From Candidatus Nomurabacteria bacterium (GTDB taxonomy: Bacteria > Patescibacteriota > Minisyncoccia > Phycocordibacterales > UBA9973), in the NCBI GenBank assembly GCA_963832025.1, contig CAWHSF010000003.1, positions 207,665-271,664 on the forward strand: a stretch of DNA of 64,000 nucleotides. Direction: 5' to 3'. Shown piece after piece: positions 2,532 through 61,259 of this stretch (the first letter of the stretch is position 1; every line of letters starts with the position of its first letter). The position numbers were made by a program, and so were the translations under genes. The notes below the pieces were generated by a model. It was given only the letters and a program-made list of their open reading frames with translations. It ran no database searches and had not been told where the DNA came from.

Positions 2532-3523
2532 ATGAAATTTAGGTTTCTATTACTGCTTTTAGTTACAATAATCATAACAACAGGTGTTATTTCACCGTTT
2601 AAAGTAAGTGCTTCTTCCCCCAGTGATGTTAGTATATCCACCGTTCCAGAAAACCCAGCTCCAAATCAAAATGTAACTATCACATTGAGCAGTTATGTAG
2701 ATGATTTGGATAGTGTTTTAATAACTTGGACTGTAAACGGAAAAAATTCTAGTTCGGGAATCGGCGATAAATCTTTTTCTTTAATCGCTCCAGCTTTGGG
2801 GCAAAAAACGACAGTCATAGCTACCATTTCTTTATCTGATGGAGATTTAAATGAAACGATACCGATAACCCCAGCAATAATGACCATGCTTTGGCAGGCA
2901 AATGATTCTTATGTGCCGCCTTTTTACGAGGGAAAAGCTTTGCCGTCACCGGACAGTGAAATAAAAGTTGTGGCTATGCCGGAAATAAAAAATGGTTCCA
3001 GTTTTGTCAATCCCACAAATATGACTTATGATTGGCAACTAGATGAAAACAATCGATGCGGACAATTCCGGTTATGGGAAAAATTCTTATATTTATGTAA
3101 GTGATTATTTGGATAATTCAAACAATGTTAGCGTGACAGCTTCTACTTTAGACCAACAAGACTTCAGTGGATGGAAGCTTAAATGTAGCAACCGTAAATC
3201 CAAAAATAGATTTTTATAAAGATGACCCAACTTTGGGAACTGTTTGGGAGAAGCAGTTTCAGATGGTATCAAGATTACGGGAAATGAAATTATTACAAGC
3301 TGCTCCATATTTCATATCACCAAAAGAGTTTAAGAATTCCTTTTTTGACATGGACCTGGTCTTTGAATGGAGCAACAGATTGCCGTGTCATCTTATAGTA
3401 GTAACATTATTGCCACTACAACTGCAAAACGGCATTCATGGAACATCTCAAATAGGCCTAGAGGTGAGCAATATTCACAGCTTGGTCAACACAGCCAGCA
3501 AGGAAATTAATGTAAATTTTTAA
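2532..3523 (+). pseudogene. secreted protein with signal peptide, interrupted by two +1 frame changes (2532-3104, ~3051-3219, 3167-3523)
   Basis: N-terminal signal peptide MKFRFLLLLLVTIIITTG. The sequence continues as IDADNSGYGKNSYIYVSDYLDNSNNVSVTASTLDQQDF in the +1 frame, then (V)DGSLNVATVNPKIDFYKDDP in the next +1 frame. Confidence 0.45.
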
Positions 3524-3529
3524 CATGAG

Positions 3530-3609
3530 TCCCGTTAGAAGTAACTTCTAATAATAACAATGTAATGATAAAAAACTATAAACAAAATAAAATAACTTCT
3601 AACGGGATG
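3530..3609 (+). repeat. intercistronic hairpin cassette, family G copy 3 (3' arm ends on ATG 3607)
   Basis: Left arm TCCCGTTAGAAGT (3530-3542). Proximal complement ACTTCTAA (3544-3551). Distal perfect complement ACTTCTAACGGGA (3595-3607), followed by TG. Confidence 0.7.
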
Positions 3610-4752
3610 AAAAAACTTTTATCGTACTTAATAATATTCATTGCGCTGGTCGCGATATTTGGCCCAACAATAAGAGTAAATGCACAGACATGCAATATGA
3701 ATGGTTATGATGGTAGCCCTACGGGAGCGTGTGATTATGGTGGCACCCCTGACTATACTGATTTTCAATCCACCCAAACTGAATGTAATGCTCAAATTGC
3801 CGCCAAGGATGCAGTATCTTTTATTCCTGACACATATGGGGTATGTACTATAAATGGTTCAGCAAATGCATGTTGGACAAAAACATCCTGTATACAAAAT
3901 AAGGGAACTTTTGCCGGTTACTATAATTTGTTACAGCCCCTTCCTGGAGTAGGCGCAACGTTTAATCCCATAAGCACTCCTGGTCAGCCAACTAGCTTGA
4001 GTAGCTACTTAAACCCAATGATAAATATTTTCATTGGTATTTGCGCAGTATTGGCTGTGATAATGATCTTAATGGGTGGAATTGAATACATGACAAGTGA
4101 ATTAATCTCAAGCAAAGAAGCAGGAAAGGAAAGAATAAGGAATGCTCTGCTTGGGCTTCTCTTGGCCCTCGGTGCTTGGAGTATTCTTAATACAATAAAT
4201 CCTAACTTACTTAAGTCTGATGTAAGTATTCCAGATGCAAATGTAACTACAAATATAACAGCGCAAAATTTTGCAAACTCTCCCTCAACGTACATTGTTC
4301 CTCTTGGCCAAACAGGAAAAACAAGTGGTACAAACTGTGATGAAAATGCAATTTCTACATCTAATCAAACGGCAAGCTCCGGTCTTAATAGTTCCCAGAT
4401 ACAGACACTTGCTTGTATAGGTGGGATAGAAAGCGGTTGTAACTCAGTCGTAAACTACAACTGGAATAATGGATCCTCTGCATATGGGCCTTTCCAGATA
4501 ACATTACAAACAAATGCTGGTTGTTTTGAAAATAGTGTTTGTCAGCAAGCAGCTGGAGTAAGTGGACCCCTTAATTGTGCCGCTGGATTCCATAATGGAA
4601 ATCCCATACCGGGTTCTCTAATTGTGGCACAATGCATGAAGGCTGCTGATAATTTTACCTGTAGTGTAGCTGCTGCCGCGTGTTTAATAAAACAGAACCC
4701 GAACTATAGCGACTGGAACGCAAACGGCAATCTTTCAAAATGCACATCATAA
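3607..4752 (+). CDS. T4SS-pilin-like protein (two hydrophobic helices) with Cys-rich N-terminal part and lytic-transglycosylase-like C-terminal region
   Basis: Signal peptide MKKLLSYLIIFIALVA. TrbC/VirB2-style hairpin IFIGICAVLAVIMILMGGIEYMTSE...ALLGLLLALGAWSILNTINPNL. The C-terminus has E-S...YGPFQI, resembling the SLT catalytic motif. The longest ORF starts at 3565; start 3607 is preferred. Confidence 0.55.
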   Translation: MKKLLSYLIIFIALVAIFGPTIRVNAQTCNMNGYDGSPTGACDYGGTPDYTDFQSTQTECNAQIAAKDAVSFIPDTYGVCTINGSANACWTKTSCIQNKGTFAGYYNLLQPLPGVGATFNPISTPGQPTSLSSYLNPMINIFIGICAVLAVIMILMGGIEYMTSELISSKEAGKERIRNALLGLLLALGAWSILNTINPNLLKSDVSIPDANVTTNITAQNFANSPSTYIVPLGQTGKTSGTNCDENAISTSNQTASSGLNSSQIQTLACIGGIESGCNSVVNYNWNNGSSAYGPFQITLQTNAGCFENSVCQQAAGVSGPLNCAAGFHNGNPIPGSLIVAQCMKAADNFTCSVAAAACLIKQNPNYSDWNANGNLSKCTS

Positions 4753-45034: not shown

Positions 45035-48000
45035 TTATTCTTGTACTGTTGTTGTGGTAGTTTTCTTTCCGAGAGGTTGATGATCTACAACAGTGGTAGT
45101 TCTTTTGATAAAAGGAGCTGTGGGCGGTGGAAGATATGCTGGATTTATTTTTCTTTGTCCGTAAATATATTTTGCTAACAATATCAATATAAGAATAAGT
45201 ATGATTATGATAAGCCAACCAAATATATTTGTCGGGAAGAAGCCAGCTCCGAAAGCGAATGCTCCAAGAGGGGAGGTCGTTCCGGTTGTTGCACTCCATA
45301 CTTGAGCGGAAACATTCGCATTGACTGATTGAGAATTACCGGAAGGGTCAACATAGTTTAAGGTTGCAGGGAAGTTGAGCAATGTGCCTGCGGTTGCGTC
45401 GCTGTTTACCTGTGTTTTTACTGTTACCACACCGGAAGCTCCTCCTCTAAGTGTTCCCAAGTTGAATACCAAAGTATTTCCGAGAACATTAGGATTGATT
45501 GGGTTCGATGAAAGATAAGTTACTTCTTGTGGCAACACTAACTGCAAACTTAGATTGGTAGCAGATCCTGTTCCGACATTTTGATAATTTATAGTGTAAT
45601 TAATTTCATCTCCTGGGTGTGGTCTGGTGTTGTCAATTGTAGGAACAATCGGTTGGTCTCTATTTACCGAAGAAGTAATAAGAAGAAGTGAACTTGCAGC
45701 TGTCCTGTTTACATATCTGATTACTGTCGTCGGACTCTGTGCCCCAGTTGTGGTAAAGCTTAATATATAACCATTACTACTTTGATAGGAATCTTGCGCA
45801 ATTGCTCGGAAGTAATAAGTTGTTCCAGGGCTTAATCCACTCAATGTGTCTGTGTGTATAACCGATGGCAATGTTCCGACAGCTGTGGTTGTAGTCGTAT
45901 TTCCCAAATTTATAGTTGGGCCCCACTCAAACCAAGCATTTATTGGGCTGGAATCAGAACTGCTAATTAAGGAGTTCAATTGTGCACTGGTGCTTAATAC
46001 TTGTGTTGCTTGCGTGGTGACGACACTTAGATTGCTTGCTATTGGTTGTGGATATATTGGTGTTGGAACGGGATATACCGGAACTATTGGTTGATAGTTT
46101 TGATTTACATAAACAGTGGTTGAACCAGTCGCTTGCTGTCCGGTGCTACTAGTACAAACAATATTGTAAGTAGTTGTATAAGTTAGAGCTCCAGTAGTTA
46201 TACTGCCGGAAGTACTTTGTGTTCCGGAAAGTCCATTGTAACCACCAGTAATACTACAATAACTTGCGTTAGTTGAGTTCCAAGAAATAATACTGGAACC
46301 ATTATAGTTGACACTGGAAGGATTTGCGTAAATGTTGACGGTAGGTTGCAAAATTTGATTTTGATTTACATAAACAGTGGTTGAACCAGTCGCTTGCTGT
46401 CCGGTGCTACTAGTACAAACAATATTGTAAGTAGTTGTATAAGTTAGAGCTCCAGTAGTTATACTGCCGGAAGTACTTTGTGTTCCGGAAAGTCCATTGT
46501 AACCACCAGTAATACTACAATAACTTGCGTTAGTTGAGTTCCAAGAAATAATACTGGAACCATTGTAGTTGACACTGGAAGGATTTGCGTAAATGTTGAC
46601 GGTAGGAATCTGGTTTTGAATTTGATTTACCGACACCGTCGCTGAAGCACTTACTTGTGTTCCATTGGTTCCATAACAAGTAATTGAATAGGTTGTAGTT
46701 CCACTTGGTACTACAACTCCGGAACCACTAGTTGCTGTACTGGAAGTCCAGTAAGCCTGACAAGATGTTGCGTTATTTGAACTCCAAGTAAGTGTAGAGT
46801 TTGCTCCGGATTGGATGGAAGTTGGGTTGGCGTAAAGAGAAACGGTTGGGTTTTGATATTGAATCTGATTTACCGACACCGTCGCTGAAGCACTTACTTG
46901 TGTTCCATTGGTTCCATAACAAGTAATTGAATAGGTTGTAGTTCCACTTGGTACTACAACTCCGGAACCACTAGTTGCTGTACTGGAAGTCCAGTAAGCC
47001 TGACAAGATGTTGCGTTATTTGAACTCCAAGTAAGTGTAGAGTTTGCTCCGGATTGGATGGAAGTTGGGTTGGCGTAAAGAGAAACGGTTGGGTTTTGAT
47101 ATTGAATCTGATTTACCGACACCGTCGCTGAAGCACTTACTTGTGTTCCATTGGTTCCATAACAAGTAATTGAATAGGTTGTAGTTCCACTTGGTACTAC
47201 AACTCCGGAACCACTAGTTGCTGTACTGGAAGTCCAGTAAGCCTGACAAGATGTTGCGTTATTTGAACTCCAAGTAAGTGTAGAGTTTGCTCCGGATTGG
47301 ATGGAAGTTGGGTTGGCGTAAAGAGAAACGGTTGGGTTTTGATATTGAATCTGATTTACCGACACCGTCGCTGAAGCACTTACTTGTGTTCCATTGGTTC
47401 CATAACAAGTAATTGAATAGGTTGTAGTTCCACTTGGTACTACAACTCCGGAACCACTAGTTGCTGTACTGGAAGTCCAGTAAGCCTGACAAGATGTTGC
47501 GTTATTTGAACTCCAAGTAAGTGTAGAGTTTGCTCCGGATTGGATGGAAGTTGGGTTGGCGTAAAGAGAAACGGTTGGGTTTTGAATCTGTTGCGCTGCT
47601 ACTGTTACCGTCGCATATGCGGAAGCTTGTGCTCCGGTACTGCTGGTACAAGTAAGATTGTAAGAAGTTGTATTAGCTAAAGCTCCAGTATTAAAACTAC
47701 CGGAAGTATTTTGATTTCCTCCCCAACCATTTGTACCACCACTTGCGATGCAAGATGTTGCGTTGGTGGAATTCCAAGTTAAGATACTTGTTCCATTGTA
47801 AGCTACGGAAGTTGGATTAGCGGAAAGAGAAACTGTCGGCTGAACCTGACCACTCACTGACACCGTCGCATAGGCGGAAGCTTGTGCTCCGGTACTGCTG
47901 GTACAAGTAAGATTGTAAGAAGTTGTATTAGCTAAAGCTCCAGTATTAAAACTACCGGAAGTATTTTGATTTCCTCCCCAACCATTTGTACCACCACTTG

Positions 48001-60851: not shown

Positions 60852-60869
60852 TAGAGCCTTAGAGAAATG

Positions 60870-60941
60870 CCCTCGTAGTTCAATGGATAGAACAGAGCTC
60901 TTCTAAGGCTTCGATGTAGGTTCGATTCCTACCGAGGGCAC
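60870..60941 (+). tRNA. tRNA-Arg (anticodon UCU)
   Basis: Acceptor GCCCTCG/CGAGGGC; anticodon loop CTTCTAA; T-arm GTAGG-TTCGATT-CCTAC. Confidence 0.9.
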
Positions 60942-61259
60942 AAAAATAAGCGGAGCATATTTTTGTGCCCGAGAGCGAGCAAACTGCTTTGCTCGCGGGT
61001 AGGAAGCGAAAAGCTTTTCATTAATAGCGAGAAATTTATTTCGAGCTATTTGAAAAGGTATACTGTTCCCGTAGGGAAAGATATCCTACCGAGGGCACAA
61101 AAATAAGCGGAGCATATTTTTGTGCCCGAGAGCGAGCAAACTGCTTTGCTCGCGGGTAGGAAGCGAAAAGCTTTTCATTAATAGCGAGAAATTTATTTCG
61201 AGCTATTTGAAAAGGTATACTGTTCCCGTAGGGAAAGATATCCTACCGAGGGCACAAAT
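60929..61259 (+). repeat. 2 x 157-bp direct tandem repeat, each unit starting with the last 13 nt of tRNA-Arg(UCU)
   Basis: CCTACCGAGGGCACAAA occurs at 60929, 61086 and 61243. The intervening 157-bp units read identical. Confidence 0.9.

Follow-up and report, generated by a model that had tools for sequence, protein, structure and literature searches.

Where does a gene begin when its longest open reading frame (ORF) starts inside a DNA hairpin that itself ends on a start codon? This question is raised by the gene for a pilin-like protein in a 64,000-nt stretch of contig CAWHSF010000003.1 from a Candidatus Nomurabacteria bacterium (the window, in full). A sequence-only reading of the window had assigned the hairpin before this gene to a repeated "Family G" and had placed the gene start at position 3607 instead of position 3565. 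Our analysis showed that positions 3530-3607 are inserted DNA and that the insert is one of a family of elements that occupy and rebuild start codons and whose arms pair. The joint explanation that fits best, and that we consider probable, is that 3530-3607 is an insertion element that duplicated the bases TGAA, rebuilt the ATG at 3607, which is the native start, and persists at start codons.

The perfect 13-bp arms described in the sequence-only reading are present: 3530-3542 and 3595-3607 are fully complementary, with 52 nt between them, and A3607 is the first base of the ATG at 3607-3609, where that reading had placed it. The element comprises 78 bases (3530-3607), and the window reads TAA C ATG AG, TCCCGTTAGAAGT, 52 nt, ACTTCTAACGGGA, TG AAA AAA. 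The features of the locus are as follows.

3521-3523, forward strand: TAA stop codon of the upstream gene, whose homologues in relatives (327-328 aa) lie before the pilin gene; frameshifted in the window.
3525-3551, forward strand: mini-ORF ATG AGT CCC GTT AGA AGT AAC TTC TAA (MSPVRSNF, stop), which spans the entire left arm and begins at the left-over original start codon.
3526-3529, forward strand: TGAG, the left-hand direct repeat of the target duplication, one base off the right copy.
3530-3542, forward strand: left arm TCCCGTTAGAAGT, 13 bp, the perfect complement of the right arm.
3534-3552, forward strand: local alternative hairpin, in which 3534-3541 pairs with 3545-3552 around a 3-nt loop; a competitor for the left arm.
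3543-3594, forward strand: interior, 52 nt, A+T-rich.
3565-3567, forward strand: in-frame ATG in the inserted interior, where both the longest ORF and the publicly annotated gene begin.
3595-3607, forward strand: right arm ACTTCTAACGGGA, ending in A3607, the first base of the start codon.
3607-4752, forward strand: pilin-like gene from the supported start, 381 aa, with a putative signal peptide (MKKLLSYLIIFIALVAIFGPTIRVNA, followed by Q) and a T4SS_pilin domain (PF18895).
3608-3611, forward strand: right direct repeat TGAA, formed by the TG of the start codon and the first two bases of codon 2.

The local pairing of the left arm with adjacent bases, also noted previously, does exist; however, at -6.0 kcal/mol it falls far short of the long stem (-17.2 to -19.1 kcal/mol), to which G3529 and T3608 (U in RNA) contribute an additional G.U pair. 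RNA folding of the region gave the long stem at -19.1 kcal/mol with a z-score of -4.0, and equally good folds were obtained in none of 200 shuffles. Five perfect inverted repeats with arms of 13 bp or more and a spacing of 20-120 nt lie in the window, compared with a mean of 0.28 and a maximum of 3 in 60 dinucleotide shuffles. The 12-mer GTCCCGTTAGAA was found twice in the window, the second time on the minus strand, where it is paired with its complement and abuts an ATG. Given the shuffle statistics, the fold z-score and this second paired occurrence, the repeat at 3530-3607 stands above chance.

Evidence for insertion came from six relatives with the same gene order (loci L001, L002 and L207-L210). 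The conserved order consists of genes for a VirB4-like ATPase, the 328-aa protein, the pilin-like protein and a protein of ~460 aa, followed by jag, yidC, rnpA, rpmH and dnaA. In the relatives, the upstream stop codon is followed by 1-5 nt and then by ATGAAAAAA, that is, ATGAA(A/G)AAA, with no hairpin and no 80-nt gap. Because all six sites are empty and the ~80 extra bases of the window lie exactly at the start codon, 3530-3606, including the ATG at 3565, is inserted DNA. Set against these empty sites, the sequence in the window is ...TAAC A[TGAG][TCCCG...CGGGA][TGAA]AAAA, in which the four bases that followed A in the original ATG stand on both sides of the insert; the flanks TGAG and TGAA constitute a 4-bp target duplication with three of four bases identical. 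The right-hand ATG is composed of the element's last A and the duplicated TG, and the left-hand ATG at 3525 is the old start codon.

We propose that an element whose interior varies and whose terminal inverted repeats span 13 bp (TCCCRTTAGAA and two further bases that covary) would have entered the start of the pilin-like gene between A and TGAA. These four bases would have been duplicated on insertion, the left copy now being TGAG, and the terminal A of the element together with the TGAA at the right junction would restore an intact ATG before an untouched reading frame. Since the element ends in A, the ATG is rebuilt at the right junction; the native gene start is therefore 3607, and the ATG at 3565 was imported by the element.

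"Family G" proved to be real: the window holds a second copy, and more than 120 further loci lie outside it. We scanned one genome per species (185,579 species) with the pattern TCCCRTTAGAA-N32-62-TTCTAAYGGGA, and at least 120 loci matched, against ~4 calculated for random sequence of the size of the collection. Family statistics were taken from 126 copies among the matches listed, to which the counts below refer. The element is 54-83 nt long among the pattern matches, reaches ~120 nt when arm pairing is relaxed, and is without coding capacity. Stem position 12 is always paired, with 74 A-T, 49 G-C and 3 T-A copies. Four pair types occur at position 13, where 94% of copies are paired, against 36% at position 14. 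The stem is thus paired at positions 1-13, exactly the 13 bp of the window copy, and positions 12-13 covary. Exact 4-bp direct repeats flank 82 of the 126 copies, compared with 11 when flanks were paired at random, and include TGAA (39), TGGA (14), TGAG (11), TTGA (7) and TAAA (6).

The last A of the element opens an ATG, on one side only, in 102 of the 126 copies, and an ORF of at least 60 codons begins there in 90 of these 102. Left flanks GTGAA, GTGGA, GTGAG and TTGAA face right flanks ATGAA, ATGGA, ATGAG and ATGAA, respectively. As a left GTG or TTG stands opposite a right ATG, the A must come from the element, the duplication is TGNN, and GTG or TTG starts have been converted to ATG. The downstream genes are unrelated and include dnaA, gyrB, dnaG, ndk, mreB, smc and those for tRNA synthetases, hibernation factors and ribosomal proteins L4, L13, L14, L22, L24 and L29, among others. 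The minority of copies off an ATG lie at TTGAC boxes resembling -35 elements (with TTGA as the target duplication), at stop codons (with TAAA) or in frame within long ORFs; four copies in frame inside protein-coding genes were seen at L007a, L032, L046 and L049. Matching interiors were found at different genes of one genome (L048/L114, L022/L051 and L025/L036), which indicates copying.

Among the matches listed, most hosts were Patescibacteria of many classes, including Saccharibacteria, Paceibacteria and Kazan as well as Nomura-, Kaiser-, Yanofsky-, Kerfeld-, Levy-, Doudna-, Morani- and Zambryskibacteria groups; the remaining hosts included Planctomycetota, Omnitrophota, WOR-3 and Stahlbacteria. 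Two viral contigs also matched, one of them from a Mu-like phage with portal and Mu-F genes. In this 10.8-kb IMG/VR contig, the copy (L205:3126-3204) lies directly after the Mu-F-like gene, off a start codon. A phage-borne copy is a possible vehicle for spread between hosts. Variant arms (TCCCGTTAGAGA...TCTCTAACGGGA), with several copies within 1 kb, occur at L076:2670-3400 and L095:3450-4080, so the family is wider than the search pattern. Rfam contained no family over the window element (gathering threshold, E <= 10) or in 12 other loci (E <= 1), and a literature search by sequence and keywords found no publication matching the element sequence or the phenomenon. The family is widespread and apparently undescribed.

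The second copy in the window precedes a DNA-repair gene, and no copies beyond these two were found in the window by blastn-short and relaxed arm matching. Its features are as follows.

31690-31694, reverse strand: ACTTG, the conserved 5' flank of class II copies, here without a target duplication.
31625-31689, reverse strand: second family copy, consisting of TCCCGTTAGAAAAT, a 37-nt interior and ATTTTCTAATGGGA, in which stem position 5 is a G.U pair and the final A opens the fpg start codon (31625-31623).
30726-31625, reverse strand: fpg/mutM-like gene, which begins where the second copy ends.

The interiors of the two window copies are unrelated. Class II comprises ~25 copies among the matches listed, including the fpg copy of the window, with ACTTG or ACCTG on the left flank and often a G.U at position 5. 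We compared 80 fpg orthologues from metagenomes and found filled and empty states at 86-87% protein identity: L126 and L137 are filled, and L125, L127, L128 and others are empty. Empty sites read ..GTATGATTATACC joined directly to ATGCCAGAA, and filled sites read ..GTATGATTATAGC, then ACTTGTCCCG...TAATGGG, then ATGCCAGAG. The insert of 69 nt lies exactly at the A of a leaderless-looking start (TATGAT, 6 nt, ATG). In the filled trio (window, L126 and L137), the arms and the ACTTG flank are kept and the interior has diverged, and both arm changes are G.U-compatible.

The TATGAT or TATAAT, 6 nt, ATG arrangement was observed in many fpg orthologues (L125-L204). At 365 well-defined gene starts (loci L005-L124), a -10-like hexamer ended exactly 7 nt before the ATG in 12% and 6-10 nt before it in 23%. 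From these arrangements, leaderless mRNAs seem to be common in these Patescibacteria. We considered whether the family targets the transcription starts of leaderless genes; a -10-like hexamer lay 6-9 nt before the left ATG in ~29% of copies, compared with 23% of 365 element-free gene starts in the same loci, where the distances peaked sharply at -7. There was thus no clear extra preference, and this idea was dropped.

Does the hairpin act on the gene that it precedes? In mRNA, the arms would form a stem of 13-14 bp (~-19 kcal/mol) that would bury the first two bases (A and U) of the start codon. At 3525, one base past the upstream stop, the old start codon would open an 8-codon mini-ORF across the left arm, and translation of this mini-ORF, or formation of the weaker hairpin at 3534-3552, would disrupt the stem and release the true AUG. 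A role in translation is plausible on this model. Among the family, a mini-ORF of the form M-x-P-V-R-x opens 64 of the 102 copies at an ATG, and in 20 of these 64 it ends at the TAA of the right arm, 4 nt before the AUG. Left-arm local pairing comparable to that in the window was found in only ~14-22% of family members. At L028:1658-1675, the 3' end of 16S rRNA is GGATCACCTCCTTTCTA; the UAGAAA of the left arm is complementary to this tail, and the UUUCUAA of the right arm mimics it.

It is conceivable, although we regard it as doubtful, that the hairpin is foremost a translational control or 5'-leader module selected by the host, whose stem would lock the AUG until alternative pairing of the left arm or mini-ORF translation unlocks it, and that mobility is merely its means of spread. 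Such a module would explain why the A and U of the start codon always lie within the stem, why positions 12-13 covary, and why essential, highly expressed genes bear copies. Arm mismatches on the sense strand of the gene are biased (G.U in 21 cases, A.C in 8), the fpg orthologues retain the arms and ACTTG around a diverging interior, and the interior is polarised relative to the gene, with CGGGA beside the left arm in 14 copies and the mirror motif beside the right arm in none. Element lengths divisible by 3, which put the right-arm TAA in frame with the mini-ORF, were in excess (31 of 64, against 18 and 15 for the other two classes). However, the length bias is modest (p ~0.03, chi-square), the downstream genes have no common function, the element is present patchily in close orthologues, and its interior is unconserved and without an Rfam match. 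The G.U bias, the interior polarity and the retention of the fpg arms are weak hints of selection on the transcript, since the events, the G.U counts among them, are not independent.

A bolder form, which we put forward tentatively as rather unlikely, is that the family is a mobile 5'-leader and translation gate directed specifically to start codons instead of simply surviving at them, opened by the M-x-P-V-R mini-ORF, selected by its hosts across Patescibacteria and spreading between phyla partly on phages. If this were true, a start-codon-directed family would convert GTG and TTG starts to ATG and give leaderless genes a leader, and the host genes would share a common hairpin-based control, that is, a portable post-transcriptional element of a kind undescribed in bacteria.

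We return to the insertion element and to the start codon that it left. The longest ORF does run from 3565 through the spacer, as the sequence-only reading had stated (395 aa, from an in-frame ATG inside the 52-nt interior), and the public record (P0001) annotates the start there. The start at 3607 that this reading preferred is supported by three independent lines, namely the N-termini of homologues, the empty sites and the behaviour of the family. Most homologues begin with MKK or MRK (MKKYF.., MKKFKF.., MKKLFSY.. and MRKFTF..), with a hydrophobic core next and then a cleavage-like V/I-x-A site, and by inspection and comparison with these homologues the 3607 start would supply a signal peptide. 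The alternative, that the functional start is the ATG at 3565 as publicly annotated, would add a 14-residue N-terminal extension. This ATG is in frame, opens the longest ORF and sits in an unpaired A-rich loop, whereas the AUG at 3607 is base-paired. However, the extension is conserved in no homologue, the codon lies within inserted DNA with nothing Shine-Dalgarno-like upstream of it, family copies overwhelmingly start at the last A of the arm, and the frame relation between the two ATGs passes A-runs in an assembly that is noisy for indels. We consider this alternative unlikely; the ATG at 3565 is probably not the native start.

The C-terminal domain of the pilin-like protein looks like a lytic transglycosylase by inspection. 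In relatives, varied C-terminal cell-wall hydrolase domains (NlpC/P60, YkuD, VanY/M15 and SLT) follow a common signal peptide and T4SS_pilin core, and the enzymatic tail appears to have been swapped between lineages.

The arms might instead be a pair of DNA operators that mark the regulon of some regulator, in keeping with conserved palindromic arms at gene starts and with the fpg position of the second window copy. However, the arm spacing ranges from 54 to more than 110 nt, the 4-bp duplications and empty sites show insertion, and some copies lie in frame inside genes. The regulon idea was rejected because the downstream genes are functionally unrelated, and we judge it very improbable. Reading the repeat as the intrinsic terminator of the upstream gene, directly past whose stop codon it lies, or as a chance inverted repeat, is hardly credible: a scan of 3300-3800 found no terminators, the loop is 52 nt with no T-run, and chance is excluded by the shuffle statistics and by a family of more than 120 loci. 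(Promoter-like sites in the same 3300-3800 interval were at chance level.) Equally hard to credit is an integron-type attC site at a gene cassette boundary, which the size (54-110 nt), conserved ends, variable interior and gene-boundary position recall, as do GTTAGAA and TTCTAAC, which we take to resemble the attC core and inverse-core motifs; an attC site has RYYYAAC at its 5' end and GTTRRRY at its 3' end, whereas here GTTRRR precedes YYYAAC whichever strand is read, 4-bp duplications flank the copies, the genes around them are core housekeeping genes whose order is conserved, and no integrase was seen near copies.

From its ends, flanks and placement, we read the element as resembling MITEs (miniature inverted-repeat transposable elements), with start codons as its safe sites. 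A transposase-like enzyme making a 4-bp staggered cut would mobilise the family, and the family would persist because start codons are rare sites in a compact genome where insertion spares the gene. The spread across phyla and the phage-borne copy point to an active mobilising enzyme, at present putative.

Several points weigh against this reading. No transposase or longer element with these ends was found, distant arm pairs enclosing ordinary genes, and no recurrent transposase-like protein cluster appeared among 1273 ORFs (0.95 Mb) around copies; the proteins of the two viral contigs did not include an autonomous parent either. Because no transposase was found, we infer mobility from footprints only. 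The flanks of the window copy differ at one of their four bases, class II copies are without the 4-bp duplication, and the clean 69-nt insert at fpg is not accounted for by a 4-bp staggered cut. The interior at 3543-3594 resembles none of the other family copies found; in what is a sparse sample, 94 of 137 interiors occurred just once. Twenty arm positions (ten per arm) were fixed by the search pattern, which allowed two-way choices at two more (one per arm), so the "conservation" of stem positions 1-11 holds by construction; the pattern also favours intact, probably young copies, and old, decayed copies are therefore missed. Ribosomes of this organism might also initiate at the ATG at 3565. 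Finally, the assembly is rich in frameshifts, some of them at short base runs, and with so many frameshifted genes the frame relations within the A-rich interior are insecure.

The frameshifted genes of the window are split over two or three frames and comprise 49-623 (TraC-like/VirB4 region), 2532-3523 (the 328-aa gene), 26060-28760 (uvrA) and 28834-30142 (uvrC). The two frameshifts examined both lie at short base runs, and the pattern points either to indel errors in the assembly, such as those that long reads introduce, or to genuine decay of the genes. Within the open frames of uvrA and uvrC, we observed three palindromic segments of ~90 nt with 22-25-bp arms, at 26509-26600 (uvrA), 29195-29286 and 29614-29701 (both uvrC). 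The first two have a common loop motif (GTTCCTCCCTTC...GGGTCCCACAC), and their arms differ between copies but are complementary within each; the arms of 29614-29701 have RTTAGAAAAT in common with the start-codon family. These segments look like in-frame insertions of the type of Rickettsia palindromic elements (RPEs). Elsewhere, a unit of ~157 bp occurs twice in tandem at 60936-61153, directly after tRNA-Arg (60869-60941), each unit with two hairpins (GGGCACAAAAATAAGC/GCATATTTTTGTGCCC and GCGAGCAAACTGCTTTGCTCGC), and a 32-nt near-palindrome (TACTAGTACAAACAATATTG/CAATATTGTAAGTAGTTGTA) occurs at 46147-46178 and 46408-46439, 261 nt apart.

These findings bear on annotation as well as on genome biology. 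Gene callers that take the longest ORF add false N-terminal extensions at such sites, for which a "...S-N-G-M" junction is a marker (as in the pilin-like protein and the ruvC-like gene at L014), and the 13-bp arms offer a simple rule to locate the true start. In some of the smallest and most compact bacterial genomes, a mobile element that restores the start codon with its own terminal base shows how selfish DNA can persist where neutral space is almost nil. With the AUG of the carrier gene inside a strong stem, either such stems are opened routinely in these bacteria or the element is used for control. Saccharibacteria, which are among the hosts, are now genetically manipulable (PMC10633639).

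How does the family compare with known systems? Like MITEs, its members have terminal inverted repeats, a fixed-length duplication, a small non-coding size and both filled and empty orthologous sites; no cognate autonomous element or transposase with the same ends was found around copies. Correia elements of Neisseria (CREE/NEMIS) are likewise short and non-coding, lie beside genes with terminal inverted repeats and a target duplication, are co-transcribed as hairpins, and exist as several interior variants with the same ends. However, they have 26-bp terminal repeats and a TA duplication, in contrast to the 13-bp arms of another sequence and the 4-bp TGNN duplication described here. Unlike Correia elements, 81% of the copies listed coincide exactly with a start codon, which their own terminal base restores, and the family combines low copy number per genome and cross-phylum spread with no known parent transposase. 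RPEs are also palindromic mobile elements of very small, compact genomes, with some copies in frame within genes; they are longer (~100-150 bp) and insert in frame within genes, whereas here intragenic copies are a minority and the start codon is the main site.

The element ends presumably also resemble those of piggyBac/IS1380-type DDE transposons, which have 13-bp repeats beginning CCC, TAGAAAG-like bases and a 4-bp duplication biased to T..A. The clean empty sites seen here are as expected after the precise excision of such elements; unlike theirs, the target here is not TTAA, and class II is without duplication. No piggyBac/IS1380-type transposase was found in the 0.95 Mb around copies. 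REPINs and REP elements, which RAYT (Y1 HUH) transposases mobilise, are, like the present family, non-coding and made of a short conserved sequence that occurs twice around a variable spacer and forms a hairpin, and a single-copy, vertically inherited enzyme may serve both them and the present family. They differ in being extragenic, in lacking a target duplication and in numbering hundreds of copies per genome, whereas the family shows duplications, start-codon placement and few copies (two in the 64-kb window). Finally, the byp elements of Magnusiomyces mitochondria and the gap in phage T4 gene 60 are also short mobile inserts with matching short flanking repeats with which translation must cope. 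Those inserts lie within coding sequence and are hopped over; the insert at the pilin-like gene lies before the coding sequence, and no bypass is needed.
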